NCBI GenBank assembly: GCA_965140585.1 | Contig: OZ223272.1 | Coordinates: forward strand, 64,001-128,000 | Origin: Spirochaetia bacterium | GTDB taxonomy: Bacteria > Spirochaetota > Spirochaetia > UBA9216 | DNA length: 64,000 nt | Direction of reading: 5' to 3' | Shown here: positions 15,286 to 47,987 of the stretch, in pieces | How the letters are laid out: each line of letters begins with the position of its first letter | Position numbering within the stretch: position 1 is the stretch's first letter | Program-made: the position numbers and the translations under genes | The notes under the pieces: model-generated | The model's database searches: none | What the model saw: only the letters and a program-made list of their open reading frames with translations | What the model was told of the DNA's origin: nothing

Positions 15286-15291
15286 TGAATA

Positions 15292-16248: not shown

Positions 16249-16352
16249 CCTAATACACTCCTTAACAAAATTTGTTTCTGTTCGATCAGTGATTAAAAAT
16301 CCTATGATTTATAAAATCACCCGTTTAATATTTTCAGATACCTCCTTTATTT

Positions 16353-17384: not shown

Positions 17385-17402
17385 AATATCTCCTCCGAAA
17401 TT

Positions 17403-20041: not shown

Positions 20042-20782
20042 TTACTCCCCCAGCAGTTCCTTAACAACTGAGCAGACTTTAGCCTTGATATTACTGCCAG
20101 CGGCGTATTCTTCAGTCACGTTCTTAACAATATGCGAGCCTACAATTGCCGCATTGCAATAGGCTTCAAGGGTTTCCACCTGGGCTGCTGTTTTTATTCC
20201 GAAGCCGGCCATAATATTTACATTGTACTTTTTCACCTGGTCAAGAAAGCCGAGGTTGAATGAGTCGAGTTTAGTTTCCTGGCCGGTGATTCCGCTTCTG
20301 AGTGCCACGTATATCCACTCGGGCCTTTCTGTCATTATCGATTCAAGCCGTTCAGGTGAAACATCCGGTACAACAACGGGGACAACGCTTATTCCGGCTC
20401 TGCGTCCTGCCTCGTACAGCCCCTCATCCATCCCCGGAGTGAGGTCGGGAATTATGAGTCCGGTTACACCGTATTCAACCGCTTTTTTTACGAAGTTTTC
20501 GACGCCCATGTTAAAAACTATCCCTGAATAGCTCATTATATAGACCGGTACATCAGCGTAGGCCTTAATCCGTTTTACCAGTTCAAAGGCATCTGTTACC
20601 CGAAAGCCCTTTTCAAGCGATTTGCGGCAGGCAAGCTCAATTACCGGGCCGTCTGCGGAGGGGTCGCTGTAGGGTATCTGCATTTCAAGGGCATATGCCC
20701 CTCCGTCTATAAGGCCGGCAGCAGTCTGGAAAGATGATTCGATATCCGGGTAGCCGGCAATAAAGTGTGTTACAAGTTTCAT
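20042..20782 (-). CDS. trpA: Tryptophan synthase alpha chain
   Basis: AGYPD, IPYSDPSADGPVI, GITG, AGFGI. Confidence 0.95.
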   Translation of the reverse strand: MKLVTHFIAGYPDIESSFQTAAGLIDGGAYALEMQIPYSDPSADGPVIELACRKSLEKGFRVTDAFELVKRIKAYADVPVYIMSYSGIVFNMGVENFVKKAVEYGVTGLIIPDLTPGMDEGLYEAGRRAGISVVPVVVPDVSPERLESIMTERPEWIYVALRSGITGQETKLDSFNLGFLDQVKKYNVNIMAGFGIKTAAQVETLEAYCNAAIVGSHIVKNVTEEYAAGSNIKAKVCSVVKELLGE

Positions 20783-21993: not shown

Positions 21994-21994
21994 A

Positions 21995-23458: not shown

Positions 23459-25064
23459 CTCTTTCCTCCAGCAGGATGCTGCTTCTGATTAGTGACTCGA
23501 GCTTCTTTTTAACAGCTCCGGATTCAAGAACCTTTTTTGCCTTCTCATATCCCTCGGTGATAGATTCGGCATTGCCGGTGACAACCATGGCAGCTCCGGC
23601 ATTTAGCAGACAGGCTGCCTTTATGGCAGCTGGACCTGCGCCTTCGACTATACTTCTGCCGATAACAGCATTTTCATCAGCCAGACCGCCTTTCAGATCA
23701 TCAAGGGTAAAACCCTCAATTCCGGCTTCCTTCGGATCAAAAATAAAATCATTCTCAACACCGTCATTATCGATCATGAAAATCCTTGTCGGAGCTGCAG
23801 GCGATATTTCATCAAGCCCGTCATTGCTGTGGACCGTCATTACCCGTTTAGCACCAAGCATCTTCATAGCCCTCGCCATAACAGGGCAGAGCTCATTATT
23901 ATATACGCCGATTAGAAGATATGCAGCCTCGGCAGGATTAACCAGTGGGCCGAGCAGGTTCATTATTGTTTTAACGCCCATCTCTCTGCGTACCGGAGCC
24001 GCGTGGGCCATAGCCTTGTGAAAGAGAGGGGCAAATAGAAATGCAAACTGTTCCTTTTCAAGAAGCTCAGTCGATTTCTCAGGACTCAAGTTGTAGCGGA
24101 TTCCCATTTCCCGGTAGAAATCAGCACTTCCGCTTTTTGAACTTACCGCACGGTTGCCATGCTTTGCAACGGTAATTCCTGACGCTGCAAGAATGAGCGC
24201 GGAGAGGGAGCTTATGTTGAAAGTGTGGTGTCCGTCTCCGCCGGTACCGACTATATCAAGGACATCAGATGAGGTTTCAAGATGAACTTTTTTACGTTTT
24301 AAAACTTCTGCACATCCGGCGATTTCATCTGCAGCTATCCCCTTGCAGTTGAGTGCTGAGAGAACAGCCGCTGTATAGGCCGGGTTAAGAGAGCCTTCGG
24401 TCAGCTCATCCATGAAATCGGCAGCTTCCTTCCTGCTTAAATCCTCACCCTTCTGAACCTTGACCAGCAGGGCTGTCTTATCCAGAGGTTCAAGCTTATA
24501 CCGCAGAAAATTCTTTAAAATGATTTTACCGGCATCAATACATCCGATTGATTCAGGATGAAACTGGACACCTTCAATCACGTAATCCTTGTGCCGCAGT
24601 CCCATTATTTCACCGTCGGCGCTCTCGGCGGTAATCTCCAGGCATTCCGGCAGGGTTGAGCGTTCGGCAGCAAGTGAATGATAGCGCGTAAAATCGGCTG
24701 ATGCAGGGAGGTTTCTGAAAAGCCCTCTGCCATCCAGAGATATGCTTTCAACTTTTCCGTGAACGATATTCTTTGCACTGACTATCCGCCCGCCGAAACT
24801 TTCGGCAATGGCCTGATGTCCAAGGCAGATACCTAGGATTGGAATCTTTCCGGCAAAGTGATTGATGGCCTCGATTGAAATACCTGCATCTGCAGGGGTT
24901 CCCGGGCCCGGAGAAATAATCAGACTTTCAGGATTAAGTTTTTCAATCTCTTTGACGGTAATCCTGTTGTTTCTGAAAACCTGTACCGGGGTCTCGGTAA
25001 GTTTTGATAGTTCCTGAAAGACGTTGTATGTGAAAGAATCATAGTTATCAATTATTACAATCAT
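23451..25064 (-). CDS. trpGD: Anthranilate synthase component II / phosphoribosyltransferase (TrpG-TrpD fusion)
   Basis: IDNYDSFT, GICLGHQ, QFHPES, then GTGGDG, KHGNR, GLDE. Confidence 0.94.
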   Translation of the reverse strand: MIVIIDNYDSFTYNVFQELSKLTETPVQVFRNNRITVKEIEKLNPESLIISPGPGTPADAGISIEAINHFAGKIPILGICLGHQAIAESFGGRIVSAKNIVHGKVESISLDGRGLFRNLPASADFTRYHSLAAERSTLPECLEITAESADGEIMGLRHKDYVIEGVQFHPESIGCIDAGKIILKNFLRYKLEPLDKTALLVKVQKGEDLSRKEAADFMDELTEGSLNPAYTAAVLSALNCKGIAADEIAGCAEVLKRKKVHLETSSDVLDIVGTGGDGHHTFNISSLSALILAASGITVAKHGNRAVSSKSGSADFYREMGIRYNLSPEKSTELLEKEQFAFLFAPLFHKAMAHAAPVRREMGVKTIMNLLGPLVNPAEAAYLLIGVYNNELCPVMARAMKMLGAKRVMTVHSNDGLDEISPAAPTRIFMIDNDGVENDFIFDPKEAGIEGFTLDDLKGGLADENAVIGRSIVEGAGPAAIKAACLLNAGAAMVVTGNAESITEGYEKAKKVLESGAVKKKLESLIRSSILLEERVE

Positions 25065-25073
25065 ATTCCTGCC

Positions 25074-26474
25074 TCACACCTGTATTCCGGCGGCAAGAGC
25101 GGCCGCCCTGAGTTTTTCATTGGTTTCTTCAAGTTCACGTTCGGGGTTGGAATCAAAAACGATTCCTCCGCCGGCCTGCAGATACAGTCTGTCGTGGCGC
25201 TTGAGCCCACTGCGGATTGTTATGCAGGTATCGATATCCCCGGAGGAATCCATATAACCGACAAGGCCGGCATAAAAGCTGCGGTTGAATTTTTCAATTC
25301 TGGAGATGGTTTCTATAGCCTGGATCTTGGGTGCGCCGGAGACGGTTCCCGCCGGAAAGCTTGCCCTTACAGCATCTGTGCTGTCCTTATCATCCCGAAG
25401 CTCACCTTCAACCTGAGAGACTATATGCATCACCTTGGAGTATTTCTCTATCACCATGTATTCAGTTACTTTTACAGTTCCGGTTTTACATACCCTACCA
25501 AGGTCGTTACGGGCAAGATCTATTAGCATAAGATGTTCCGCACGTTCCTTTTCATCTGCCAGAAGTTCATCTGCCAGAGCAATATCCTCGGCTTCGTTCT
25601 TACCTCTTCGACGGGTACCCGCTATCGGACGGATAGTTACTTTGCCGTTTTTCACTTTGATATGAACCTCGGGTGAAGCTCCGTAGAGCTGGTACTCACC
25701 GAAATCCAGAAAGAAAAGATAGGGGGATGGATTTGATGAGCGAAGGTTGCGGTATGCATCAATTGCCTGCATATCGGTTTTTATCTCAAGCCTTCGGGAA
25801 GGTACACCCTGAAGAAGATTCCCCTTAATCACCTCGTCCCGGATTATCCTGACATTCTTTTTGTATTCCTCTTCTACAGCCTTCGATGAAACAATTTCAG
25901 CAGGGTCCGTCTTCGGCGGTTCAGCCATGTAGTTGAAGTTGAGATCAAATATCTTGCTTTCTACTTTCTTAAGTTCCTTCTCGAGATCGACCTCGTATCC
26001 GGGGTAGTTGATAATCAGGATGTAGATTTCATCAGTGTAGTGATCGAAGATAAGAAAATCGTTTCCGAAGAGAAAGCAGGCATCAGGAAGTCCGAGCTGA
26101 TCCGAGCGTTCAACAAAGTTTATGTCATCACAGAACCTTGCGAACTCGAATGATAAAAAGCCTATTCCGCCGGATGGAAAGGGAAAATCGTGTTCAACGC
26201 CCTTGTGAAAAAGGGCAAATTTCTTCACTGAATCAAGAATATCGCGGCCGCCGTTGACTATCTTTTTCTTCCGGCCGTCTGTCGTAACAAGTGCGCAGTC
26301 TGTTCCTTTCTGAACAATACGGAATGCTTCTTTAATAAGAAGGATGGAATATCGCTCACGTCCCTTGCTCAGCGATGATGATTCAAGTATTACAGCAGCA
26401 TTAAGCTTCTGCGCGAGGGCAAAGGGTGTAAACTTCTCGCCCGGTATTTTTTTGACCATGTGCATCTGTCGCAT
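25074..26474 (-). CDS. trpE: Anthranilate synthase component I
   Basis: NPSPY, PIAGTRRRG, AEHLMLIDLARND, GTVSGAPK; first gene of operon. Confidence 0.93.
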   Translation of the reverse strand: MRQMHMVKKIPGEKFTPFALAQKLNAAVILESSSLSKGRERYSILLIKEAFRIVQKGTDCALVTTDGRKKKIVNGGRDILDSVKKFALFHKGVEHDFPFPSGGIGFLSFEFARFCDDINFVERSDQLGLPDACFLFGNDFLIFDHYTDEIYILIINYPGYEVDLEKELKKVESKIFDLNFNYMAEPPKTDPAEIVSSKAVEEEYKKNVRIIRDEVIKGNLLQGVPSRRLEIKTDMQAIDAYRNLRSSNPSPYLFFLDFGEYQLYGASPEVHIKVKNGKVTIRPIAGTRRRGKNEAEDIALADELLADEKERAEHLMLIDLARNDLGRVCKTGTVKVTEYMVIEKYSKVMHIVSQVEGELRDDKDSTDAVRASFPAGTVSGAPKIQAIETISRIEKFNRSFYAGLVGYMDSSGDIDTCITIRSGLKRHDRLYLQAGGGIVFDSNPERELEETNEKLRAAALAAGIQV

Positions 26475-26518
26475 AAAATCTCCCGGTTTCTACCTATAGA
26501 AACGTTATTGTATATAGA

Positions 26519-26547
26519 AACATAGAGTTTTTATCCTAAACTGTCAA
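26519..26547 (-). promoter_or_regulatory. Sigma-70 promoter of trp operon
   Basis: TTGACA-N17-TATGTT on - strand, about 45 nt before the trpE start. Confidence 0.6.
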
Positions 26548-26556
26548 GAAGCAGAT

Positions 26557-26601
26557 AAAAAAAAGGACCTTCTTAATACAACAAATGTATCAAAAAGGCC
26601 C
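26557..26601 (-). terminator. Terminator of sugar ABC operon
   Basis: GGGCCTTTTTGATACA-tttgt-TGTATTAAGAAGGTCC followed by T8 on - strand. Confidence 0.7.
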
Positions 26602-26623
26602 ATGTATATATCAGCACCCGCTG

Positions 26624-27613
26624 TTATGCTTGTCGTTTTATATGCTGCAGATGGTCAATTGATACTGCAAAAAGGAGAATAATACCCTTGATAAGATCCT
26701 GCCAGTATACAGATACATCAAGAAGAATAAGTGAACTGGTTATGATTGACAGAAGGGCGATTCCGAGGATTGATCCGAATACGGTTCCCTCGCCTCCGGT
26801 AAGGCTGGCTCCGCCGATAACGGCAGCGGAAATTGCAGTCATTTCAAGACCTACTCCGAATCCGGGGGTAGAGGCACCGAATCGGGCCATATAGATGATA
26901 CCGGCCAGACCGGCAAGCAGTGAGCAGAGTGTGCTCACTCCGATCTTAACCCGGTTGATTCTTATACCTGAAAACTTTGCAGCCTTTTCATTACTTCCGG
27001 TATAGAATACTTTCCGGAGCAGGGTTGAGTTTCTAAGCATGTAATCACTGAGTATTACTATCACAAGAAAGATTATGATTACAAAGGGAAAGGGTCCGAT
27101 TGTTCCCTGTCCGAGAAACTTGAAGCTTGAAGGAAGTGTGAAAAGGGATAAAGGCGTTCCCTGTGTGATTACAAAGCATGCTCCGCGGGCAATGCCCATA
27201 AATGCCAGTGTCGTAATAAAGTGGACCAGCCCTACCCTGGTAACCAGAATGCCCATTATTGCACCTATTCCGCCGGTTATTACCAGGGCAATTATACTTG
27301 CAAGCCAGGGATCAACACCAAGAAGGAACAGCTTTCCGGCAATACACATTGCCAGACACATTACAGCACCTACGGAAAGGTCGATTCCGCCCAGAACCAG
27401 CATTACAGTCATTCCGACAACAACGATACCTTCGGTTGCAAATGAAAGGAATATAGCCTTCCAGTTGTTCCAGGTCATGAAATAAGGCGACAGAAAATTC
27501 ATCAGAATACATACACCTATGATAATCAGAATAAGGGTTCCTTCCCGAAAGCCCTTAATCTTTGTAAAAATCCGGTTTAATACAGCCAAGCGGTTGTTTG
27601 CAATTTCACTCAT
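26624..27613 (-). CDS. Sugar ABC permease
   Basis: GGIDLSVG, GSNEKAAKFSGI, AAVIGGASLTGG. Confidence 0.93.
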   Translation of the reverse strand: MSEIANNRLAVLNRIFTKIKGFREGTLILIIIGVCILMNFLSPYFMTWNNWKAIFLSFATEGIVVVGMTVMLVLGGIDLSVGAVMCLAMCIAGKLFLLGVDPWLASIIALVITGGIGAIMGILVTRVGLVHFITTLAFMGIARGACFVITQGTPLSLFTLPSSFKFLGQGTIGPFPFVIIIFLVIVILSDYMLRNSTLLRKVFYTGSNEKAAKFSGIRINRVKIGVSTLCSLLAGLAGIIYMARFGASTPGFGVGLEMTAISAAVIGGASLTGGEGTVFGSILGIALLSIITSSLILLDVSVYWQDLIKGIILLFAVSIDHLQHIKRQA

Positions 27614-27624
27614 TATCTTCTCCC

Positions 27625-29133
27625 TTATTCCATCTTTTCCAGACCGGAAGCCATATGGATTATTTTCTTTTCGTTTATATCTTCGCCGGTAATAATACCG
27701 CAGTTTGTACCCTCGTGCATAACCAGAACACGATCGCTCATTCCTATGAGTTCGGGCAATTCTGATGAAATCATTATAACCCCGATTCCCTCACAGGTGA
27801 GAGTTCTTATCAGCTTATGAATTTCAGATTTGGCTCCGACATCGATTCCCCTTGTAGGTTCATCCATGATTACAACCTTCGGATTGACCGAAAGAAGCTT
27901 GGCAATAAGAACCTTCTGCTGGTTTCCTCCCGACAGTGATGAAGCATGCTGAGACAGACTGGCATATTTAACGTTCAGTTTCCCGGCAAATTCGGCTGCC
28001 TGTTTCTTCTCCTTGGAAACATCAACCATCCCGCTCGTGGAAACCTGATCAAGATTCAACGCCGAGATATTAAGCTGGATGGACTTTTCCAGAAATACAC
28101 CCTCCACCTTGCGATCCTCGGTGAGATAAACTATGCCGTGGTTGATGGCATCCTGATAGCTGTTGATTTTTATTTCTTTACCGTTGAAAAACGTACGGCC
28201 TTCAATTTTCGGAAAGAGTCCACATACAGCCTTAACAATTTCGCTTCGGCCGGCTCCTATCAGTCCAGAAAGACCCAGGATTTCCCCCTTATGCAGGGTA
28301 AAGGAGATATCTTTAAACCTGTTTCCATCAGAGAAATTTTCAATCTTCAGCAGTTCATCCTGCTCGGTGCAAACACCATGAAACTTCGGCGGATACAAAT
28401 CGGATATTTCCCGGCCGACCATTCTGCTGACAACTTCCTTCGAGTCAGTCTCGGAAATATTGAGCTCTCCGCAATAGGTGCCGTCTCTGAGTATCGCAAC
28501 TCTGTCGCACTGTGAGAAGATTTCTGCCATTCTGTGGCTTATATATATAATACTGATCCCGTTTCTTTTAAGCTCTTTCATAATTGTGAACAAAGCATCT
28601 GTTTCAGCTTCGGTCAGTGCGGCCGTAGGCTCATCCAGAATCAGTATTTTACAGTCAAGACTTAAAGCTTTCGCAATTTCTACTATCTGCTGCTTTGAAA
28701 TTGAGAGTTCACTGACAACCTTGCGGGGATCAACATCTCCAAGCGGTTTCAGAATTTCAGCAGCTCTTTTATATAGATCCTTGTAATTAACAAATTTACT
28801 TTTAGTATTATTGAGCTCTGCCATAAAAACATTTTCAGCTACAGTGACATGCTGACAGAGCGCTATTTCCTGATGGACAAAGCCTATTCCATGTAACTGA
28901 GCATCCAGCGGATTTCTGATCTGCACTTCTTCTCCATCAATGCGGATAGAACCCTCATCAGGAAGAAGTACACCGTCTATTATGTTCATCAGGGTGGATT
29001 TCCCTGCGCCGTTCTCGCCTACCAGGGCCAGAACTTCACCTTTTTTAAGCCCCAGGCTTACATTATCAAGTGCCCGTGTACCCGGAAAATCCTTTACTAT
29101 CCCCTCTACTTCCAGTACAAAATTATCACTCAA
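27625..29133 (-). CDS. Sugar ABC ATPase with two NBDs
   Basis: GENGAGKS, LDEPTAAL, LSGGNQQK, DEPTRGIDVG. Confidence 0.95.
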   Translation of the reverse strand: MSDNFVLEVEGIVKDFPGTRALDNVSLGLKKGEVLALVGENGAGKSTLMNIIDGVLLPDEGSIRIDGEEVQIRNPLDAQLHGIGFVHQEIALCQHVTVAENVFMAELNNTKSKFVNYKDLYKRAAEILKPLGDVDPRKVVSELSISKQQIVEIAKALSLDCKILILDEPTAALTEAETDALFTIMKELKRNGISIIYISHRMAEIFSQCDRVAILRDGTYCGELNISETDSKEVVSRMVGREISDLYPPKFHGVCTEQDELLKIENFSDGNRFKDISFTLHKGEILGLSGLIGAGRSEIVKAVCGLFPKIEGRTFFNGKEIKINSYQDAINHGIVYLTEDRKVEGVFLEKSIQLNISALNLDQVSTSGMVDVSKEKKQAAEFAGKLNVKYASLSQHASSLSGGNQQKVLIAKLLSVNPKVVIMDEPTRGIDVGAKSEIHKLIRTLTCEGIGVIMISSELPELIGMSDRVLVMHEGTNCGIITGEDINEKKIIHMASGLEKME

Positions 29134-29161
29134 TTACTTCCTCCGTAGTAATGATAAGAAA

Positions 29162-29187
29162 GCCGCACCCTCAGATGAGGATACGGC
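29162..29187 (-). other. Hairpin after binding-protein gene (differential mRNA stability or partial termination)
   Basis: GCCGTATCCTCA-tc-TGAGGGTGCGGC then TTTCTT on - strand. Confidence 0.5.
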
Positions 29188-29200
29188 CTGAAAATTCTGA

Positions 29201-30277
29201 TTATTCGTTGATACCTTTGGTGCCTCTTCTCTTGAGATACTTGTCCCAGTAGAAGTTGTCAGCATTGTCTTTTGTAACAACGGCAAGGCCGTTATCAAGC
29301 AGAGGTATACCGGTAGGGTTGTAGCCTGCATCTTTGTAGTCATTCATCGGATCAACCATGTCTGAATGCTTTGCAAGATAAAGCAGAAGCATTCCGTAGT
29401 ATCCCTGAAGACCCTGGTTCGGGTTGAGAGCAGCAAACATTTCACCGGCTTTGAGCATATCAAGAACCTTTGCATTAACGTCAACACACATTACCCTGAT
29501 GCCTGTTCCAAGTTCTTTGGCAGCCTGAGCAGCACCCATTCCTGAACTGGCTTCCGGCATGAAAACACCGCCGAGGTTCGGATGAGCCTGAGCCATTGTC
29601 ATAAGAGCCTGGTATGCCTTGTTCGGATCCTGGTTTGTAGCAGCTCTGGCAACAACTTTCATGTTGGGATATGCAGTTTCAATTCTTTCGATAAATGCCT
29701 TAACACGCTTGTCGTGGTTATCCTGTCCCGGATTTTCAAGAACAGCAACTTCACCTTTTTCTCCCATATCCTTAGCGATTGTATCGGCAGCAAAACTACC
29801 TTCTCTTGTGTTGTCGGAAGTTATGTAGGAAACACGCTTTGAATTGGGTGAGTCAGCAGCAAATGTAACAACAGGAATTCCCATTTCTGCGGCTCTGTTG
29901 ATAGGTTCAATGAATGCATCCGGATTCATCGGGTGAAGAAGGATACCGGCAGGTTTTTTAGCAAGAATCTGCTCAAATACAGCAAGCTGTTTGTTAACAT
30001 CGTATTCAGGAGTACCTGTATAAACAGTATCAACTCCAAGCTGCTGTCCGGCCTGCTTCATCATTTCATAAACGGGGAACCAGTATTCTACACCTGACAC
30101 CATAACACACATATAATATGTTTCACTGGGGTCGCCGATAAAAGGTGAACTAACCTCTTCTGCATCAGCAGCTGCAGGTGCGGCTGCTGCCTCTTCTTTT
30201 GCACAGCCGCTAAACCCCAGCAGCGCAAACACTGTCAGTACTGCAAGTACAAGAGCAAGAACTTTACTAGTCTTCAT
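29201..30277 (-). CDS. Sugar ABC substrate-binding lipoprotein
   Basis: Hydrophobic leader with FSGC lipobox and Ala-rich linker; GIPVVTFAADS, YITSDN. Confidence 0.9.
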   Translation of the reverse strand: MKTSKVLALVLAVLTVFALLGFSGCAKEEAAAAPAAADAEEVSSPFIGDPSETYYMCVMVSGVEYWFPVYEMMKQAGQQLGVDTVYTGTPEYDVNKQLAVFEQILAKKPAGILLHPMNPDAFIEPINRAAEMGIPVVTFAADSPNSKRVSYITSDNTREGSFAADTIAKDMGEKGEVAVLENPGQDNHDKRVKAFIERIETAYPNMKVVARAATNQDPNKAYQALMTMAQAHPNLGGVFMPEASSGMGAAQAAKELGTGIRVMCVDVNAKVLDMLKAGEMFAALNPNQGLQGYYGMLLLYLAKHSDMVDPMNDYKDAGYNPTGIPLLDNGLAVVTKDNADNFYWDKYLKRRGTKGINE

Positions 30278-30309
30278 AATCTCTCTCCTTTTATTATTGA
30301 ATTATTTTA

Positions 30310-30321
30310 TGACATTTGTCA
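30310..30321. promoter_or_regulatory. Palindromic operator TGACATTTGTCA near the transcription start
   Basis: TGACA-TT-TGTCA; similar boxes at 33673-33696. Confidence 0.55.
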
Positions 30322-30332
30322 AAATGTATATA

Positions 30333-30348
30333 TGCAGTAAGCATGCCA
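30333..30348 (-). promoter_or_regulatory. Sigma-54 (-24/-12) promoter of the sugar ABC operon
   Basis: - strand TGGCATGCTTACTGCA = GG-N10-GC, about 55 nt before the start; adjacent sigma-54 activator gene. Confidence 0.8.
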
Positions 30349-30422
30349 AAAATCTGAAAAACAGCTAAGTCACACATTCAGAATAAGTTAACAGATTCCG
30401 GGAAAATCTGTCAAAAATAATG

Positions 30423-30473
30423 TGTTCAGAATCTGGACAGATCTGTTCGAATTACATGTTCAGAAAATGTTCA
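30423..30473. promoter_or_regulatory. Candidate upstream activator sites for the NtrC-like regulator
   Basis: TGTTCAGAATCTGGACA (30423) and TGTTCAGAAAATGTTCA (30457), 75-125 bp upstream of -24. Confidence 0.5.
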
Positions 30474-30537
30474 CTTCCCAGTTTGGTAAAGTTTTATCTT
30501 TGAAGGCTTAAAAAACCGTGTTAAAGTATTTCCACCG

Positions 30538-31845
30538 ATGAGCAGAATTTTAATACTTGATGATAATCAGAAGATTCTTGATACCCTCTCGCGTAATTTC
30601 GGTTCTGTAGGAATAGAATGCGCTACAGCTCCGGATATAAGCACCGCTTCGGGAATTCTCCAGTGCTGTCCGATTGATCTTGCAATTGTTGATATCAAGA
30701 TCGGAGAGGAAAGCGGCATTGACGCGCTGACTATGATCAAAAAAATGATACCGGATCTTCCGGTTCTGATGATAACCGGATTCGCCACAGTTGAAACAGC
30801 TGTTCAGGCAATAAAACTAGGTGCGAAGGAATACCTCAAAAAACCTGTAAGATTCCCTACCCTGCTGGAACAGGTAAAATCACTGCTCAGCGAGGAAGCC
30901 AGAGAGCTGCCTGCAATTCCCGAGATACAGACCCGTAACAGCAGAATGGTTGACGTAATAAAGAAATCACTGAAGCTGGCACAATCAAACCTGTCGGTAC
31001 TTATCCTCGGAGAAAGCGGCACCGGAAAAGAACTGCTTGCCGACCTCATACATAAATACTCTCCAAGAGAAGAAAAGAACTTCGTAAAGATAAACTGTGC
31101 CGCCTTTCCGGAATCACTGCTGGACAACGAACTCTTCGGTCACGAGAAGGGCGCCTACACCGGAGCAAATGACTGCTTCAAGGGCGTTTTTGAACAGGCC
31201 GATAACGGCTCTCTCTTCCTGGATGAACTTGGGGACATGCCCCTATCTATTCAGGCAAAGATCCTCCGGGCCATTCAGGAAAATGAAATAAGACGACTGG
31301 GCGGTAAGGAAATCATAAAGATTAACGTCCGCTTCATAGCGGCTACAAACAGGAATCTTGAAGAACTTGTTTCCGACAAGCTTTTTAGAAGCGACCTGTA
31401 CTACAGACTCAACTGCGCCTCTGTTTATATTCCGCCGCTTAGAGATCGGAAGGAGGATATCCCCCTGCTGATCGATTACTTTCTCAACCGTTATTCTGAT
31501 GAGGAAGCAAAACCACGTGTTTCAATTTCCGACCAGGCTATGGAACTGCTTCTGAATTATGACTGGCCGGGAAATGTGAGAGAGCTGAAAGCCGCCGTCA
31601 ATTACGGTGCAACAATATGTTCAAATGGAATCATGCTTCCTGAAGATCTGCCCATGTCTCATCCGGTAAAAACTATTGAGGAAACAGCCACACTCACTCC
31701 GGTTATGGCGGTTGAAAAAGAACTTATAATCAAAACTCTAATCAGAAACTCCTATAATAAAAAGAAAGCAGCAGAGGAACTCAGCATTTCAAGAACAACC
31801 CTGTACAGCAAGATGACTAAATACGGTATTACAGATGTCCTCTGA
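30538..31845 (+). CDS. Sigma-54-dependent response regulator (REC-AAA+-Fis HTH)
   Basis: ILILDD..IVD receiver, GESGTGKE, ELFGHEKGAYTGA, WPGNVRE, ISRTTLYSK. Confidence 0.95.
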   Translation: MSRILILDDNQKILDTLSRNFGSVGIECATAPDISTASGILQCCPIDLAIVDIKIGEESGIDALTMIKKMIPDLPVLMITGFATVETAVQAIKLGAKEYLKKPVRFPTLLEQVKSLLSEEARELPAIPEIQTRNSRMVDVIKKSLKLAQSNLSVLILGESGTGKELLADLIHKYSPREEKNFVKINCAAFPESLLDNELFGHEKGAYTGANDCFKGVFEQADNGSLFLDELGDMPLSIQAKILRAIQENEIRRLGGKEIIKINVRFIAATNRNLEELVSDKLFRSDLYYRLNCASVYIPPLRDRKEDIPLLIDYFLNRYSDEEAKPRVSISDQAMELLLNYDWPGNVRELKAAVNYGATICSNGIMLPEDLPMSHPVKTIEETATLTPVMAVEKELIIKTLIRNSYNKKKAAEELSISRTTLYSKMTKYGITDVL

Positions 31846-33667
31846 TACGAACATTATAGAACTAAAGAAAATCTGTTTAAATTACGGCCAGACAAGTGTA
31901 CTGCGCAAGATTGATTTCAGCGTCCGCAAGGGTGAGATTCATGCAGTCATAGGAGAGCATGGTGCGGGCAAGTCTTCACTGGCAATGATCCTTTCCGGCC
32001 ATGTAAAACCCGATTCCGGACAGCTGTTCTGGGATGCCAGTCAGACTGCATATTTTCAGCCCGGTTCTGCAAAGGAGCAGGGAATTGAGATAGTTATGCA
32101 GGAAATTGAGCAGTATGAGAGGCTCTCAATCGCGCAGAACCTTTTTGCCAACGATCCCCGCTTCTTCATGAATAGTTTTTTCACAAACAAGGAACTGAAT
32201 AAAAAGGCTGATGATTTTTTTGACTCACTCGGATTCAATTTCCGCAGCCACCGAAGACTAAGCACTCTCAAGGATACCGAGAAGGTTCTGCTGGAACTGC
32301 TCAAGCACCTTCACACAGACCCTGCGCTTCTGATACTTGATGAAACCTTTGAAAAGATGACAGCAGTCGATATAAACAGAATCATTCCCGAACTGAAAAA
32401 GAGAAAAGAGCAAGGCACAAGCATTATTTTCATAACCCATCGAATTGATGATGTCTACACCTTTGCCGACCGGGTATCGGTAATACGAAACGGAAGGATT
32501 CTTACTACCGAATCCATCAAAAATATCGACAAGATCAATCTGATAAAACTGGCCTACACTCAGGTTGTACAGGAAAGCAGTCTGGACACTACCACCCAGG
32601 AGTTCTATCAGCTTCTGAAATACAACAGGGCCATCCTAGAAAACCTGCCGATGAACCTGATTGTAGTGGATGAGTACCGGATACTCAGGCTGCTTAACAA
32701 CAATGCAAAGACTTACTTCTCAATCGGCGATAAGCCTGTTATAGGTCAGAGCATTGATGAGTTTTTCAAACTTAACGGTAACCCTGAAATCCTTGAATCG
32801 GTTTTTGAATCACTTAAAAAAAGGCAGCTTGAAACCTTCACCGTCCGGCTCAAACACAACAGCGGAAACGAGACCATCAATACAATAACCACCTACCCCA
32901 TCTACGACGGAACGATGTACATTGGCAGTATGATAATTGTCGGGGACATCACCGAGCAGGAATCACTAAGAGAGAAACTTAACTTTTCAGAAAAACTGGG
33001 GTCAGTCGGACTGCTTGCAGCAGGGGTATCCCATGAAATCAACAACCCGCTTGAGATAATAGTCAATGAAATTGACTATCTGAGGACCATGCTTCCGGAT
33101 GGCCGGCTGGACAAAGTGCTTGATAACATAGAGGAAGAGGTTGAAAGTATCGTACAGATTGTGAGCAACCTGGTATCATTCAGCGACAGTGCAAGTGAAA
33201 AGACCGAGATAATTGATCTATCCGAAGTACTTGGTCACATTATCCAGCTTATCTCCTATAATGCAAAAAAAAGAAATATTGAAATTAAATATACAGATCC
33301 TGAATCAGCATTTCTGGTTGCCTGCAACCGGACAGAGGTAAAGCAGATTATTCTCAACATCATCAAAAACAGTTTTGAAGCGGTTAACAGCGAAGGCAGA
33401 CTTGAAATATCACTTACATCAGTTTCTGAAGACGGAATCAGCTATGCAAAGATGGTATTCAGGGATACCGGCCCCGGAATAAGCGAGGATGATAAAAAGA
33501 ATATTTTCCTGCCGTTTTTCTCAAAGAAAAACGCAACAGGAAACAACCTGGGGCTCGGACTGTCAGTATCTTACGGAATAGTTAATAAAATGAACGGTAA
33601 AATCACCGTTGAAAACCATCCGGAATCGGGCTGTGTATTTACAATACTGATTCCTCATCTCACCTGA
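31835..33667 (+). CDS. Soluble sensor histidine kinase with N-terminal sugar-ABC ATPase domain (NBD-PAS-HisKA-HATPase)
   Basis: GEHGAGKS, Q-loop MQE, LLILDE, ITH; PAS-like ILENLPMNLIVVD; SHEINNPL; NIIKNS, DTGPGI, GLGL; no TM helix seen. Confidence 0.9.
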   Translation: MSSDTNIIELKKICLNYGQTSVLRKIDFSVRKGEIHAVIGEHGAGKSSLAMILSGHVKPDSGQLFWDASQTAYFQPGSAKEQGIEIVMQEIEQYERLSIAQNLFANDPRFFMNSFFTNKELNKKADDFFDSLGFNFRSHRRLSTLKDTEKVLLELLKHLHTDPALLILDETFEKMTAVDINRIIPELKKRKEQGTSIIFITHRIDDVYTFADRVSVIRNGRILTTESIKNIDKINLIKLAYTQVVQESSLDTTTQEFYQLLKYNRAILENLPMNLIVVDEYRILRLLNNNAKTYFSIGDKPVIGQSIDEFFKLNGNPEILESVFESLKKRQLETFTVRLKHNSGNETINTITTYPIYDGTMYIGSMIIVGDITEQESLREKLNFSEKLGSVGLLAAGVSHEINNPLEIIVNEIDYLRTMLPDGRLDKVLDNIEEEVESIVQIVSNLVSFSDSASEKTEIIDLSEVLGHIIQLISYNAKKRNIEIKYTDPESAFLVACNRTEVKQIILNIIKNSFEAVNSEGRLEISLTSVSEDGISYAKMVFRDTGPGISEDDKKNIFLPFFSKKNATGNNLGLGLSVSYGIVNKMNGKITVENHPESGCVFTILIPHLT

Positions 33668-33672
33668 ATTTC

Positions 33673-33731
33673 TGACATATGTTTTAACATTTGTCATTTT
33701 ATTTGACATACGACATGAACCATGTTAAATT
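33673..33731 (+). promoter_or_regulatory. Sigma-70 promoter with tandem operator boxes
   Basis: TGACATATGTTT+TAACATTTGTCA (33673-33696), then TTGACA(33703)-N17-TAAATT with extended TG. Confidence 0.65.
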
Positions 33732-33764
33732 ATCGCATCCTACTAAAAACCACAGGAGAAGATA

Positions 33765-34406
33765 ATGTACGAAAAAGAGAAAAATGAACTCATTAAAACA
33801 GGCCAGGCGCTGAAAGAATACAACCTCATTGCACTTTCAGGAGGGAATGTCAGCAGCAGAATGCCTGATAACAAAATACTTGTAACTCCTTCAGGCATGG
33901 CATACGACACCATGGTTGCAGATGATATTGTTGTTATGGATTTAGACGGAAAAATAATTGAGGGAACAAGAAGACCTTCAGTTGATTCTATAGCACTCCT
34001 ACATGTTTATAAAAACATGGAAAGAGTAAACGCAATTATCCACACTCATCAGGTATATGCAACTGCAGTCGGCATGGTATACGACAAGGTGCCCAATGCT
34101 GTAACAACACTTGCTAACGCATGTGCCGGAGAGGTTCATGTAGCCCCTTTCAGCTCGGCGGCAAGCCTTGCGATGGGTGAAGAAACCGTGGACAATATCG
34201 GAGATTCAAATGCGGTAATCCTTAAAAACCACGGTGTTATCACTGTAGGAAAAACAATAAAGGAAGCTCTTTACGCTGCAGTATATCTTGAAGATGCTGT
34301 AAAAACTCTCTTCGTCGCAAAATCGATGGGCGAGCCGGTTCTTCTCACAGATGCACAGTTTGTAGAAGCAGTTAATGTTTTTAAAGATTACGGACAGTCA
34401 AAATAA
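33765..34406 (+). CDS. Class II aldolase/epimerase; L-ribulose-5-P 4-epimerase-like by context
   Basis: SGGNVS, TPSG, PS, IIHTH, LKNHG. Confidence 0.8.
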   Translation: MYEKEKNELIKTGQALKEYNLIALSGGNVSSRMPDNKILVTPSGMAYDTMVADDIVVMDLDGKIIEGTRRPSVDSIALLHVYKNMERVNAIIHTHQVYATAVGMVYDKVPNAVTTLANACAGEVHVAPFSSAASLAMGEETVDNIGDSNAVILKNHGVITVGKTIKEALYAAVYLEDAVKTLFVAKSMGEPVLLTDAQFVEAVNVFKDYGQSK

Positions 34407-34411
34407 CAATT

Positions 34412-35245
34412 ATGAATATTGATAATTACCAGTTCGGACTTTATGAGAAAGCCGTGCCCGAAGGAATGGAATGGCCACGGCTGCTTGATTATGCCGGTGA
34501 TGCCGGATTCAGTTTTGTCGAAATATCGGTAGATGAGAGCGACTACAGACTTTCAAGGATGAACTGGTCTCTGAGTGAAAAAAAAGATTTTGTAAAGGCG
34601 GTGCTCAATTCAGGCCTGAAAGTTCCTACAATGTGTCTCAGCGGGCATCGCCGTTATCCGATCGGAAGCTGCTATGAAGATATCCGTGCCGCCGGCATGA
34701 AGCTGATGTTCGATGCGATAGACTTTGCATCCGACACAGGGATAAGGATTGTGCAGCTTGCCGGCTACGACGCGGCATATGAGGAGGAGAGTACTCAGCA
34801 ATCGCAGGATAACTACCTTTCCAATCTTGAAAAATCACTCCGCTATGCAGAGAAGCGCGGGGTAACCCTCGCTATTGAAAATATGGGCATAATTTTCATG
34901 CCCTCCATAGAACGCGTTATGACCTATGTAAAAATGTTTGACTCCCCCTATCTTCAGGCTTACCCCGATCTGGGAAACAGTTCGGCAATGGGCAATGATA
35001 TAGTTCTTGATCTGGCATCTGCCAGGGGCCATATTGCAGCCATGCATATAAAGGATACAACTCCCGGTGTGGTAAGAAGAATCCCCTTCGGCAAAGGCAC
35101 TGTGGATTTCCGGCGGGCATCGGAAGCAGTAAAGACTGCGGAATTCAAGGGGATGATAGTTATTGAGATGTGGGCTGATGAAAGCACTGACACAATGGAA
35201 GAGCTTAAAGCCGCAAAGAATTTCGTAATAGAGAATATGTTTTAA
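34412..35245 (+). CDS. ulaE: L-xylulose-5-P / L-ribulose-5-P 3-epimerase (UlaE/SgbU family)
   Basis: GLYEKA, EISVDESDYRL, MCLSGHRRYP, IVQLAGYD, YPDLGN, EMW. Confidence 0.9.
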   Translation: MNIDNYQFGLYEKAVPEGMEWPRLLDYAGDAGFSFVEISVDESDYRLSRMNWSLSEKKDFVKAVLNSGLKVPTMCLSGHRRYPIGSCYEDIRAAGMKLMFDAIDFASDTGIRIVQLAGYDAAYEEESTQQSQDNYLSNLEKSLRYAEKRGVTLAIENMGIIFMPSIERVMTYVKMFDSPYLQAYPDLGNSSAMGNDIVLDLASARGHIAAMHIKDTTPGVVRRIPFGKGTVDFRRASEAVKTAEFKGMIVIEMWADESTDTMEELKAAKNFVIENMF

Positions 35246-35256
35246 GAGGTGTGTTG

Positions 35257-36720
35257 ATGAGAAAGTTATTTATGGGAATAGACAACGGCGGAACGGTCTG
35301 CAAGGTCGGCATTTACGATTTAAAAGGCAATGAGATATCAATTGCCAGCAGAAAGGTGGAAATGCTCTATCCGGAATCGGGTCATACCGAAAAGGATCTG
35401 AAAGATTTCTGGAATGCCAATGTAGAAGCTATTAAAGAAGCTCTCTCACAGGCTGAAATATCACCTGCTGAAATTGCAGGAATTTCACAGACCGGTCATG
35501 GAAACGGAATGTTTCTGATTGATGAAAACGGTAATGATGTTATGAACGGTATAATCTCTACCGACATGCGAGCCAAATCTTATGTTGATAACTGGTACAG
35601 TGACGGGACCTTTGAAAAAATCAACAAAAAGACCCTTCAGTCAATCTGGGCGGCCCAGCCTGTCGCACTTGTAAACTGGTTTAAGGACAATAAGCCCTCT
35701 ATTATAGAAAAAACCCGCTGGATCCTGATGTGCAAGGACTATATCCGCTTTAAACTGACCGGTGAAGTATATGCAGAAATAACCGACTATTCCGGAACAA
35801 ATATGGTGAATGTACTGACCGGAAACTATGATGAAGATCTTCTTGCTGATTTCGGTATCGCGGAAATCCTTCCAAAGCTTCCGCCGCTTAAAAACTCTAC
35901 AGACATCTGCGGCTATATTTCAGAAAGTACTGCCGCGGCAACCGGGCTCAAGGCTGGAACTCCGGTAATGGGTGGGTTCTTTGACATCCATGCCGGCGCA
36001 ATAGCAACCGGACTTACCGACGATCAGGACCTTACTGTAATTGCAGGAACCTGGAGTATAAACGAGTTTATTAGCAGTTCACCGGTAGGCGCCGAAGAGC
36101 TGTTTATGACAAGCATTTACGGCATCCCCGGCTACTGGCTTGTAACCGAGGCAAGTCCAACATCTGCATCAAATCTTGAATGGTTTATGAACAGTATAAT
36201 AGAGAGTTCCGACTATGATGCGGCAAACAAACTTGTTGAATCAGTAAAACCTGATGAATCAGACCTTATATTTTTTCCTTATCTGTTCGGATCTAACCTG
36301 AAAGAAGAAATGTCTTCGAGTTTTATAGGTCTCTACGGATGGCACACTAGAGCCCATATGCTTCGGGCTATCTATGAGGGAGTAGTGTTCGGACACAGAC
36401 TTCATATCGACAAGCTGCTTAAATACCGGGACAAACCCAGAAAAATAAGAATATCCGGCGGCGCTTCGAAATCAAAGGAATGGGTTCAGATCTTTGCAGA
36501 TATTCTCGGACTTCCGGTAGAAATAACCGAGGGTGATGAACTTGGAACCCTTGGAGCATCAATGGGAGCCGCTGTTGGCGCAGGAACCTATAAAGATCTT
36601 GCAGAAGCAGCCGGAGAAATGGTAAGAGTCTCCAGGATTATAGAACCTATAAAAGAAAACACGGCTATTTATGAAAGGAAATTTCAGCTGTTTAAAAAGT
36701 ATCTTGAAGCAGTAAAATAG
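35257..36720 (+). CDS. FGGY carbohydrate kinase, L-xylulokinase-like (copy 2)
   Basis: GIDNGGT, GHGNG, AGTWSINE; follows ulaE. Confidence 0.9.
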   Translation: MRKLFMGIDNGGTVCKVGIYDLKGNEISIASRKVEMLYPESGHTEKDLKDFWNANVEAIKEALSQAEISPAEIAGISQTGHGNGMFLIDENGNDVMNGIISTDMRAKSYVDNWYSDGTFEKINKKTLQSIWAAQPVALVNWFKDNKPSIIEKTRWILMCKDYIRFKLTGEVYAEITDYSGTNMVNVLTGNYDEDLLADFGIAEILPKLPPLKNSTDICGYISESTAAATGLKAGTPVMGGFFDIHAGAIATGLTDDQDLTVIAGTWSINEFISSSPVGAEELFMTSIYGIPGYWLVTEASPTSASNLEWFMNSIIESSDYDAANKLVESVKPDESDLIFFPYLFGSNLKEEMSSSFIGLYGWHTRAHMLRAIYEGVVFGHRLHIDKLLKYRDKPRKIRISGGASKSKEWVQIFADILGLPVEITEGDELGTLGASMGAAVGAGTYKDLAEAAGEMVRVSRIIEPIKENTAIYERKFQLFKKYLEAVK

Positions 36721-36786
36721 CATAATTTGAATCAGCTTGAAGATTCTCATGCGATACTGGTATAATCAGATCTTCAGAGGTGCTCA

Positions 36787-37728
36787 GTGGATAAACAGCT
36801 GCTATACAATGTCGCCAGAATGTATTATCTGGAAGGAAAAAAACAGGAAGAAATTGCCTCAATCATAAACCGCTCAAGATCATCGATCTCGATGTTCCTC
36901 ACTCAGGCAAGGGAGGCGGGAATTGTCGAAATCAAACTGAGAAACCCGCTGGGAAACAATGAGGCTTTAGCCTCAAGACTTATTGAGAAATACGGCCTTG
37001 AACGCTGTTTTGTAGTCCCCACATCTATAAGAGATTCCAACCTGCTGCTTAAACTTGCCGCTGAAAGGGCAATTGAGATATTCAATGAAGAACTGCTGCC
37101 CGGCCTTAACATCGGTATTGCATGGGGTCGCACCTGCTATGAATTCATGACCCAGTACTACAATGATGAGAATACATATATAGACTTAAACATTGTTCCA
37201 CTCATCGGAGGAAGCAATCGTGCCCATAAGCGATTTCAGATAAATGAAATGGTCCGTGATTTTGCCGAAAAGCTGAATGGCACCCCTAACTTCATACATG
37301 CTCCGGCAATGGCTGAAAGCCTTGAAGATCTGCAGCTGTACAAAAACAGCTCTATGATGAAAAAGATTGTCCAGTACTGGGATACCCTCGATATAGCCGT
37401 CACATCGATAGGGGTACCGCCTTCAGATACTACAGATGAAATATGGAGGAAGTACCTCGATCTTGAAGATGATAAATCCCCTGTATTCAATAATGCAGTA
37501 GGAGATATCTGCGGCTGGCCCTTCGATAAGGATGGTAATTTTCTGTCGGGCGATGCAACAGAACTGCTAATGGTATGCAGCCATGAACAGCTTAAAAAAA
37601 TACCTAAGGTTATCTGCATAGTTGCCGGGCTTGAAAAAGCCAAGGCTGTTTCTGCAGGACTGAAATCAAGGATATTCAGTCATCTCATTATTGATGAACA
37701 GACAGCACTCGCCGTATTAAACAACTGA
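36787..37728 (+). CDS. SorC/DeoR-type sugar-binding regulator
   Basis: VARMYY..QEEIA HTH, GIAWGRT, AVGDIC. Confidence 0.9.
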   Translation: MDKQLLYNVARMYYLEGKKQEEIASIINRSRSSISMFLTQAREAGIVEIKLRNPLGNNEALASRLIEKYGLERCFVVPTSIRDSNLLLKLAAERAIEIFNEELLPGLNIGIAWGRTCYEFMTQYYNDENTYIDLNIVPLIGGSNRAHKRFQINEMVRDFAEKLNGTPNFIHAPAMAESLEDLQLYKNSSMMKKIVQYWDTLDIAVTSIGVPPSDTTDEIWRKYLDLEDDKSPVFNNAVGDICGWPFDKDGNFLSGDATELLMVCSHEQLKKIPKVICIVAGLEKAKAVSAGLKSRIFSHLIIDEQTALAVLNN

Positions 37729-37816
37729 ACTCCGGCCGTTGAATCTTAAATTATTTCTTGAATATTCTATTGACAGTCAGTCCTCAATATTTACACAATA
37801 AAACGAGGAGAAAATA

Positions 37817-38689
37817 ATGTTAGATATACCTGAAAAAGTCAGGCTGGAAATCCGCAGGGACCAGCGCAACGAGATAGAAGCCCATCTTATTTACAGCAGC
37901 ATTGCCGCTTCATGCAAAAACCCTGAGAATGCGAAAATTCTTAAAACTATAGCTGCTGATGAAAAAAAGCACTATGACTACCTGAAAAAATTCTCAGGGA
38001 TGGATATAAAACCAAGATTCCTGTATGTACTGATTTTCAAAATAATTGCCAGGATACTTGGACTGACATTCGCTTTCAAACTGCTTGAAAACGGTGAGCA
38101 GGAAGCTCATGAGGGATATTCTTTAATAGAAGAATATCTGCCCGAACTTAAGCAGGTCATCGAAGAAGAGGAACGGCATGAACGTGAACTCATCGATATG
38201 CTCAATGAAAAACGCCTTAACTATATAGGGTCAATAGTTCTTGGACTCAATGATGCCCTTGTCGAGCTTACAGGTGCACTTGCAGGCTACACCTTCGCAA
38301 TACAGGACAGCAGAAACATTGCCCTTCTCGGTCTGATTACCGGTATATCCGCATCACTCTCAATGGCTGCAAGTGAATATCTTTCCAAGAGAGAGGAAAA
38401 GGAGGAAGGGGGATTCAGTTCGAGTATTTATACAGGTCTGGCCTATATAATAACTGTTACCCTTCTGATACTTCCCTTCCTTATCATCCCCAATCCGTTC
38501 ATTGATCTTGGAATAACAATAGCTATAGCTGTGCTTATCATCCTGTTCTTTAATTTCTATATTTCAGTCGCCAAAGACCTTGATTTCAAGAGCAGGTTCC
38601 TTGAGATGGCCGGAATAAGTATCGGTGTTGCAATAATATCGTTTGGAATCGGCTGGGCGGTAAGAACCTTTCTGGGATTCGAGCTGTAA
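37817..38689 (+). CDS. Rubrerythrin-VIT1/CCC1 iron exporter (MbfA-like)
   Basis: DEKKH and EEERH diiron motifs, then GLNDALVE, SMAASEYLS. Confidence 0.85.
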   Translation: MLDIPEKVRLEIRRDQRNEIEAHLIYSSIAASCKNPENAKILKTIAADEKKHYDYLKKFSGMDIKPRFLYVLIFKIIARILGLTFAFKLLENGEQEAHEGYSLIEEYLPELKQVIEEEERHERELIDMLNEKRLNYIGSIVLGLNDALVELTGALAGYTFAIQDSRNIALLGLITGISASLSMAASEYLSKREEKEEGGFSSSIYTGLAYIITVTLLILPFLIIPNPFIDLGITIAIAVLIILFFNFYISVAKDLDFKSRFLEMAGISIGVAIISFGIGWAVRTFLGFEL

Positions 38690-44876: not shown

Positions 44877-44894
44877 CTCTCCTATTCTGATTTA

Positions 44895-46067: not shown

Positions 46068-46105
46068 TTTGAAGCCTCCACTATTTGTATGATACTAAAA
46101 ACAAT

Positions 46106-46909: not shown

Positions 46910-46917
46910 ATTAAGAC

Positions 46918-47889: not shown

Positions 47890-47966
47890 AACTAACTCCT
47901 TATTATTAGGCTACAGAATCCTGTAAAATTAAGTATCTTGAATATAGTAACCTAATTTCATCTTAC

Positions 47967-47987
47967 TGGCATACCAATTGTATACCA
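47967..47987. promoter_or_regulatory. Tandem GntR-type boxes upstream of iolN
   Basis: TGGCATACCA-a-TTGTATACCA. Confidence 0.75.

Follow-up and report, generated by a model that had tools for sequence, protein, structure and literature searches.

Two-component kinases are thought to sense their signals through ligand-binding domains or through separate partner transporters. The window analysed here, a 64,000-nucleotide stretch of contig OZ223272.1 from a Spirochaetia bacterium, encodes a sensor histidine kinase (31835-33667, + strand) whose N-terminal input domain is an ATP-binding cassette (ABC) ATPase, or nucleotide-binding domain (NBD), that, to judge from alignment and phylogeny, descends from the first ATPase domain (NBD1) of a CUT2 transporter. 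The fusion is real, ancient and widespread, and the protein belongs to a large conserved family whose sensor module is itself a transporter part. Transporter-linked two-component sensing was already known; what is new is a covalently captured transporter domain serving as the kinase input.

An earlier note on this DNA had described a protein without transmembrane (TM) segments, in which ABC_tran, PAS, HisKA and HATPase domains are joined in one 610-aa frame, and this architecture was borne out. The open reading frame (ORF) was uninterrupted, and in its 610-aa product Pfam recognized ABC_tran at residues 23-172 (E 1.7e-21; 77.7 bits against a cut-off of 25), PAS folds at 265-376 (PAS_9, PAS_4 and PAS), HisKA at 392-452 and HATPase_c at 499-608. 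No TM segment was found in the kinase by hydropathy, the maximum 19-residue Kyte-Doolittle mean being 1.04. The AlphaFold2 model, computed from a 128-row alignment with a mean predicted local distance difference test (pLDDT) score of 82.7, consisted of the NBD, the linker, the PAS domain, a long DHp helix pair and the catalytic domain. The parts of the gene were assigned as follows.

31835-33667 (+): soluble sensor kinase, NBD-PAS-HisKA-HATPase_c (ORF, Pfam, NCBIfam, AlphaFold2 model, hydropathy)
31835-32563 (+): ABC ATPase (NBD) input domain, residues 1-243 (Pfam, NCBIfam, motifs, model pLDDT about 90, tree)
32564-32593 (+): variable linker between the NBD and the PAS N-cap helix, residues 244-253 (pLDDT below 50; unconserved columns)
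32594-32950 (+): PAS domain whose N-cap helix, EFYQLLKYNxAIL, is strongly conserved, residues ~254-372 (Pfam, conservation, model secondary structure)
32951-33658 (+): kinase core, DHp/HisKA with H400 (SHEINNPL) and HATPase_c with N508, N512, D544xGxG and G573LG (Pfam, conservation)

The kinase core had the H-box histidine in DHp and the N, G1 and G2 boxes of the HisKA/HATPase_c class. H400, N508, N512, D544, G546 and G573-G575 were invariant in 128 sequences, and the invariant columns were also seen in a 25-sequence set. In NCBIfam, residues 3-262 resembled the first NBD of LsrA, YtfR, AraG, RbsA, AlsA, XylG and MglA (E 1e-43 to 1e-35). The protein has one NBD and not the two tandem NBDs, of about 500 aa, that mark a CUT2 transport ATPase, and all of the CUT2 equivalog cut-offs lay far above its scores, the best of which was 147.7 bits for LsrA against a cut-off of 586. 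The AtoS model (NF008468) gave 200.9 bits against a cut-off of 646 and aligned with residues 254-608 only, so that the kinase is not an AtoS equivalog.

The motif pattern given in the earlier note, with Walker A, Walker B, the Q-loop and the H-loop kept and the signature and D-loop diverged, agreed with both the translation and the alignment. Among the elements that characterize PF00005, Walker A (GEHGAGKS, residues 40-47), the Q-loop (Q89), Walker B (LLILDE, with D169 and E170) and the H-loop (ITHR, H202) were present, together with the A-loop tyrosine Y17 and N102, while a signature motif (LSGGQ or LSxxQQQ) and a D-loop were missing. The signature region, LSTLKDTEK, replaced the LSxxQQQ of CUT2 ATPases and TFEKM replaced the D-loop PTxAL. 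When 121 kinase NBDs were aligned colinearly with 21 CUT2 NBD1 domains, the family consensus at these two positions read LNLSDRV and ALEKL. The (S/T)VAENxF block after the Q-loop, which lines the coupling-helix groove in ABC importer structures, was kept in the family NBDs.

In the NBDs of 128 family members, A37, G40, G45, K46, Q89, N102 and D169 were invariant and E41, H42, G43, A44, S48, E170, T201 and H202 were at least 90% conserved, as was Y17, the adenine-stacking aromatic position, in the 25-row set. Three conserved elements were specific to the family: H42 of Walker A, the last NBD helix, NIDKINLIKLAYTQ (residues 231-243), and the PAS N-cap, EFYQLLKYNxAILxxLP. Such a conserved path from the NBD to the PAS domain is expected if the NBD is the signal input. 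The catalytic glutamate was lost in one member (L143) and the H-loop histidine in four (L143, L146, L147 and L150), which argues that ATP hydrolysis is not universally required; K46, D169 and Q89 were never lost. With the A-loop, Walker A, the Q-loop and the Walker B aspartate conserved, the NBD is predicted still to bind ATP, and its motifs indicate that it is without the signature and D-loop needed for a normal ATP-sandwich dimer. Our reading is that selection maintains ATP binding and probably neither canonical dimer closure nor hydrolysis. In a distant subclade (L144-L147, L150, L040 and L041) an NBD1-like signature, LSxxxQxMVE, was still present and looks like an intermediate stage.

Two family loci had incomplete frames. 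The kinase ORF of L148 (9035-10612, - strand) started at the Q-loop (MMYQDLN...), so that Walker A and the rest of the NBD's first third lay outside the frame, with a 257-nt gap between this ORF and the regulator gene; either a truncated, decayed copy or an assembly frameshift may be responsible. On the contig that carries L004 and L142, the kinase ORF broke off at the position corresponding to residue 475, and the adjoining ATPase was split into ORFs of 304 and 189 aa, which may be either pseudogenes or the result of sequencing frameshifts.

All of the 120 best homologues listed for the window protein (40-98% identity, 598-634 aa) carried PF00005, PF00512 and PF02518. When the distant member L041 was the query, 117 of the 120 best listed carried the three domains and the other three were shorter fragments, giving 237 of the 240 best over both searches. 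The family comprised at least 240 sequence clusters among the matches listed, and the kinase's own cluster in the ESM Atlas had 62 members. Where the sources gave the homologues names, these were generic ("ATP-binding cassette domain-containing protein", "histidine kinase", "AtoS"); organisms identified by name belonged to Spirochaetota, to KSB3/Moduliflexus/Vecturithrix and to Desulfomarina (Desulfobacterota). A match at E <= 1e-60 was found in 12 of 301 sampled Spirochaetota genomes (10 of 126 genera), some of which had two or three copies. The source genome had a single copy of the kinase among 25 two-NBD ORFs; these and a further 75 single-NBD ORFs are consistent with a sugar specialist.

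The earlier note had named a chimeric assembly at the junction among the outcomes that would refute it. The fusion was upheld, since contigs from two other studies bridge the NBD/PAS junction: one (run X2) covered the whole 3.8 kb in one piece with 230 differences and no indel, and the other (run X3) covered 32030-33271 and spanned the junction without an indel. An assembly or annotation chimera was rejected, and its probability considered negligible, on the grounds of the single open frame, the 237 of 240 homologues, the conserved junction helix and PAS N-cap, and these two independent contigs. No description of an NBD-kinase fusion was found by full-text literature searches, most subscription journals being outside their coverage, in line with the earlier note, which knew of no characterized example; nor was one found in the available portions of a 2025 survey of sigma-54 regulons (PMC12316311).

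The further scans differed in what they retrieved. The scan of metagenome loci mostly picked kinase-only relatives, L040 and L041 being the only full-length family members, and a scan of genome contigs with a single protein gave 5 family loci among 31. No fused NBD-kinase was found around G301 (Chloroflexota) in 351 genomes searched by protein query and 301 searched by profile, with three to four first-look candidates scored per genome. Six long Chloroflexota frames were examined and were ATPase-permease fusions, not kinases. Five loci of Chloroflexota-class genomes (L176-L180, from G689, G678, G681, G662 and G728) had ORFs of about 835-940 aa in which CUT2 NBD1 and NBD2 are fused to a CUT2 permease, so that motor and membrane domain lie on one chain, each adjoining a second permease and a binding protein. 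The ESM Atlas also offered two leads, both with a score of 0.83: proteins of about 850 aa with ABC_tran, GAF_2 and HisKA, mostly from Actinomycetota (166 members), and proteins of about 515 aa with ABC_tran, HisKA and HATPase_c (136 members).

The resemblance to the first NBD of RbsA-type CUT2 ATPases that the earlier note had seen was confirmed by NCBIfam, by the colinear alignment and by phylogeny. A quick maximum-likelihood tree, unrooted and with 102 rows, was built from 34 of the 128 kinase NBDs, NBD1 and NBD2 of 23 of the 25 two-NBD ORFs of the genome, and the 22 best-scoring of its 75 single-NBD ORFs. The 34 kinase NBDs fell on one side of a branch with a support of 96 in the Shimodaira-Hasegawa-like approximate likelihood ratio test (SH-aLRT). 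They grouped with CUT2 NBD1 domains in a set of 58 rows (34 kinase, 22 NBD1 and 2 single-NBD; support 96) and were separate from the NBD2 domains (support 96), with one long-branched ORF outside. The nearest solved NBDs in a sequence search of the PDB were generic (OpuCA, ABCB1 and CbiO). Recent duplication of NBD1 of the neighbouring ATPase was rejected, since the kinase NBD is only 30-31% identical to it and 32-34% identical to the best paralogues in the genome. The low identity to the adjoining NBD1 argues that the capture is old and was not a local duplication. The origin of the input domain in the first ATPase domain of a CUT2 transporter is thus the conclusion drawn from these comparisons.

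The kinase gene overlaps by 11 nt the stop codon of an NtrC-type regulator gene and faces an ABC operon with its own two-NBD ATPase, an arrangement that the earlier note had reported and that the ORFs and Pfam reproduced. The following features were assigned at this locus.

30538-31845 (+): sigma-54-dependent response regulator with REC, AAA+ (GAYTGA) and HTH_8 (Pfam Response_reg, Sigma54_activat and HTH_8; NCBIfam; translation)
30392-30474 (strand not assigned): candidate sites for activator binding, lying 45-125 bp upstream of the promoter (repeat search; putative function)
30333-30348 (-): predicted sigma-54 -24/-12 promoter with the sequence TGGCATGCTTACTGCA, some 55 nt before the start codon of the binding-protein gene (pattern match)
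30293-30322 (-): sigma-70-like promoter, TTGACA-18-AATAAT, downstream of the sigma-54 site and ahead of the binding-protein gene (11/12 consensus match only)
29201-30277 (-): periplasmic sugar-binding lipoprotein-like protein (Peripla_BP_4), operon gene 1 (Pfam, NCBIfam)
27625-29133 (-): CUT2 two-NBD transport ATPase, RbsA/XylG-like (Pfam, NCBIfam)
26624-27613 (-): single CUT2 permease, BPD_transp_2, RbsC-like (Pfam, NCBIfam)
26565-26601 (-): terminator-like hairpin and T run after the permease gene, operon end (consensus scan only)

The regulator, whose REC gene lies directly upstream of the kinase gene as expected of a cognate response regulator, combines REC with a sigma-54 AAA+ domain and a Fis-type HTH, and the genome has rpoN (Sigma54_DBD at G000:C7:554606-555082, 191.5 bits); with the -24/-12 site, these are the components of an NtrB/NtrC-type sigma-54 two-component system. 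The site at 30333-30348 was the sole match to TGGCAY-N5-YTGCW in the window, where 0.27 are expected, and the top-scoring -24/-12 site of the window locus. It was conserved in the two nearest relatives, L002 and L003, the -12 element of L002 reading TTGT. The 260-bp intergenic region between the divergent regulator and binding-protein genes also contained palindromic repeats at 30392-30411 and 30427-30446 and a further repeat at 30454-30474, and alignment of the three intergenic regions showed that the element TGTTCAGAATCTGGACA (~30423-30439) was conserved in L002 and L003. The regulator probably activates the operon for the binding protein, ATPase and permease, and a predicted circuit that runs from the kinase through the sigma-54 regulator to the divergent CUT2 operon is well supported by these features.

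The transport ATPase had a canonical NBD1 and an NBD2 with GAGRS and LSGGNQQK and without the H-loop histidine. The single permease presumably forms a homodimer; a PDB sequence search returned no solved homologue of it. A second terminator-like hairpin with 13 pairs (29160-29189, - strand; consensus scan only) was noticed between the binding-protein and ATPase genes and could raise the ratio of binding protein to transporter.

The window regulator, ATPase, binding protein and permease were compared with all ORFs of 22 distinct loci (the window, L001-L005, L040, L041, L136-L141 and L143-L150), L142 sharing its contig with L004; among the 22, L001 matches the window at 98% identity and so is no independent case. 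The linkage to CUT2 operons and sigma-54 activators on which the earlier note had staked its case held in most of them. A sigma-54 regulator gene was directly upstream of the kinase in 21 of the 22, the remaining locus, L005, beginning at the contig edge. CUT2 ATPase or permease genes, or both, were within the fetched flank in 18 of the 22, usually divergent from the regulator; the loci without them were L005 (cut upstream), L040 (a 6-kb contig), L041 and L143. A transport ATPase of its own was present in 17 of the 18 ABC-bearing loci, the 18th (L146) being cut by the contig end, and in L144 this was a canonical single NBD with LSGGQ. The idea that the kinase NBD substitutes for a missing motor was rejected because every operon that could be assessed has its own ATPase. 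Two genomes had three copies of the kinase, G120 (L137, L139 and L145) and G281 (L138, L142 and L148), with a separate ABC operon beside each copy. When 20 distinct loci were scanned for -24/-12-like sites with an ad hoc score, the top-scoring site preceded the ABC operon in 15; in L148 and L040 the site before the operon ranked second, and that of L002 was missed by the score and visible in the alignment.

How a soluble kinase at such a locus perceives its signal is the question to which the captured domain may give the answer, and we put at a little below an even chance the leading proposal, that the kinase NBDs bind to the permease and thereby register the change that the sugar-loaded binding protein brings about in it. 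The two NBDs of a kinase dimer would occupy the coupling surface that the permease dimer presents to the cytoplasm, in alternation or competition with the genuine transport ATPase. Docking of the sugar-loaded binding protein outside would rearrange the permease and shift the relative position of the two NBDs, and the shift would reach the DHp helices by way of the conserved C-terminal NBD helix, the linker and the N-cap helix of the PAS domain, and there set kinase versus phosphatase activity. The transporter would then be the receptor for its own induction. The fuller picture, in which two ATP-loaded, signature-less kinase NBDs take the seat of the motor on the permease dimer and an ABC motor domain has become a signal transducer, with the importer as the receptor, is offered tentatively. 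Several observations favour docking, 1) the captured domain is the transporter part that normally reads the permease, 2) the Q-loop and the VAENxF block are retained, 3) each paralogue is paired with its own transporter and 4) there is no other plausible extracellular input. Complex prediction with the permease (121-row alignment) and kinase residues 1-250 gave scores of 0.23 and 0.25, below the mark of 0.32, and speaks on neither side of the question.

A number of points weigh against docking. The contact between NBD and permease and the direction of the signal are inferred, and the gene linkage is equally explained if the operon is simply the target of the regulator. One family member, L041, adjoins an Opp-type ABC system and not a CUT2 system, and L143 had no ABC genes in 19.8 kb, its top-scoring sigma-54 site facing a Big_5/ice-binding-like gene; downstream of this kinase were genes for a LacI regulator, an FGGY kinase, a class II aldolase and AraA. 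Since every ABC operon that could be assessed keeps its own ATPase, the kinase would have to compete for the permease. The loss of catalytic residues in some members suits a switch but also suits domain decay, and the ligand could in fact be sensed by the PAS domain. Without their activator, sigma-54 promoters are normally silent, so that a sensor that needs the permease and binding protein requires a basal source of them; such a source was hinted at only by the consensus sigma-70-like site at 30293-30322, which could provide basal expression.

The most serious competitor to docking on the permease holds that the NBD is a nucleotide-binding regulatory or dimerization module that never contacts the transporter, that the signal is either a sugar or metabolite in the cytoplasm, sensed by the PAS domain, or ATP/ADP, sensed by the NBD, and that the ABC operon is a target only. 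It fits the finding that within the NBD conservation is strongest at the nucleotide-binding residues, whereas the motifs of the dimer interface have been rewritten, and cytoplasmic PAS kinases of the AtoS/NtrB type, whose AtoS representative residues 254-608 match, are common. It would also accommodate L143 and L041, which have no adjacent CUT2 system, and KdpD (PMC11018627) supplies a precedent for a Walker A/B domain in a kinase. We nevertheless regard it as less likely than docking, because it leaves unexplained why the captured domain is specifically a CUT2 NBD1, why each paralogue is accompanied by a CUT2 operon of its own and why the glutamine of the Q-loop is invariant and the VAENxF block retained. 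Moreover, an NBD on its own makes a poor gauge of cellular energy, since such domains bind ATP at concentrations far lower than those in the cell.

Two other explanations also tie the NBD to the transporter. ABC proteins with one degenerate site show complementary asymmetry, and the motif pattern of the kinase NBD, which keeps a consensus half-site (Walker A/B and H-loop) without a signature, as NBD1 does towards NBD2, matches it; the kinase NBD might then join NBD2 of the transport ATPase, which bears the signature LSGGNQQK, in a mixed ATP sandwich and report how busy the motor is. This is improbable, since in the ATPase NBD1 is already paired with NBD2 within a single polypeptide, the D-loop, another contributor to contacts between NBDs, has been rewritten, and the transporter at L144 has a canonical single-NBD ATPase with its own LSGGQ. 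Still harder to credit, and given only a very slight probability, is an NBD that acts as an effector in the manner of KdpD, blocking or modifying the transporter post-translationally while the kinase core controls transcription. The KdpD precedent (PMC11018627) and the conserved Walker B aspartate and glutamate are all that speak for it; the domain has the ABC NBD fold and not the KdpD-type kinase fold, Pfam gave no KdpD match, and the sequence has no sign of transferase activity.

If the NBD does dock on the permease, the family would represent a new, covalent solution to transporter-coupled sensing and would show by what means a soluble kinase can detect a sugar outside the cell. It would also provide a simple system for studying how a permease relays the docking of its binding protein to the cytoplasm without ATP turnover, a template for sugar biosensors and a general route from any ABC importer to a transmembrane receptor without a membrane-spanning kinase. 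If the NBD does not dock, it would still be an unstudied nucleotide-dependent kinase input domain.

The genes flanking the system were also assigned. Directly 3' of the kinase gene (33765-37728, + strand) are four genes, which encode an L-ribulose-5-P 4-epimerase-like class II aldolase-fold protein, an L-ribulose-5-P 3-epimerase of the UlaE/SgbU type (above NCBIfam cut-offs), an XylB-like FGGY kinase and a DeoR/SorC-type regulator. Together the four point to a pentulose route of the L-xylulose/L-ribulose type, and through it to a pentose- or pentitol-like compound as the substrate of the ABC system. In front of them no sigma-54 site was observed. Beyond the permease gene is a complete tryptophan operon (20042-26474, - strand) with a trpE-like gene, fused GATase and anthranilate phosphoribosyltransferase, fused IGPS and PRAI, trpB and trpA, which appears to be unrelated to the kinase system. 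The ORF sizes at 14172-18905 (-) and 43818-51748 (-) suggest two more sugar-type ABC clusters in the window.

Among known systems, the Bce modules are similar in logic. According to PMC4513084 and PMC10314905, BceS of the Firmicutes BceRS-BceAB system senses through its ABC transporter; as is proposed for the window locus, an ABC transporter serves a kinase that lacks a ligand-binding sensor itself, and the regulator induces that transporter, giving need-based induction. However, BceS is a membrane kinase whose TM helices bind the BceB permease of an exporter-type system, with BceA as a separate ATPase, whereas the window kinase is soluble, has its ATPase-like domain attached covalently, is linked to a CUT2 importer with a binding protein and has a sigma-54 output. 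The absence of a TM segment and a transporter composed of Peripla_BP_4, a two-NBD ATPase and BPD_transp_2 set it apart from Bce-type modules.

In E. coli, the PAS-containing kinase PhoR reads the binding-protein-dependent importer PstSCAB from the cytoplasmic side, near the ATPase. There the genuine ATPase PstB and a separate adaptor protein, PhoU, provide the coupling, while the window kinase has a fused NBD; PhoU was not among the genes annotated at 20042-38689, where no search was aimed at it. MalK, also of E. coli, is an importer ATPase that reports the activity state of its transporter to the transcription factor MalT, but it is a working motor that sequesters the activator through an extra C-terminal regulatory domain, with neither a kinase nor a fusion. 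The XylFII-LytS-YesN system of Clostridium beijerinckii is likewise a two-component system that induces a CUT2 operon, xylFGH, with perception by a Peripla_BP_4 protein (PMC8050422); there, however, the binding protein directly contacts a periplasmic domain of a membrane kinase, neither a permease nor an NBD takes part, and the system is not sigma-54 dependent.

KdpD, like the window protein, is a kinase with an N-terminal Walker A/B domain, and this domain acts physically, via KdpB, on the transporter that KdpD regulates (PMC11018627). KdpD is, however, membrane-bound and its domain has another P-loop fold with serine-kinase activity, and the window kinase has no Pfam KdpD domain. The closest relatives of the input domain itself are the CUT2 ATPases (RbsA, XylG, AraG, MglA, LsrA and YtfR), whose NBD1 is colinear with it; they have two NBDs to its one, and the kinase NBD differs in its rewritten signature and D-loop and in its fusion to PAS and kinase domains. 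The protein belongs to none of the Bce, MalK, XylFII-LytS or KdpD systems nor, judging by the genes annotated, to the Pst-PhoU type and, by all of the sequence criteria applied, is classed as a HisKA-class kinase of a sigma-54 two-component system.

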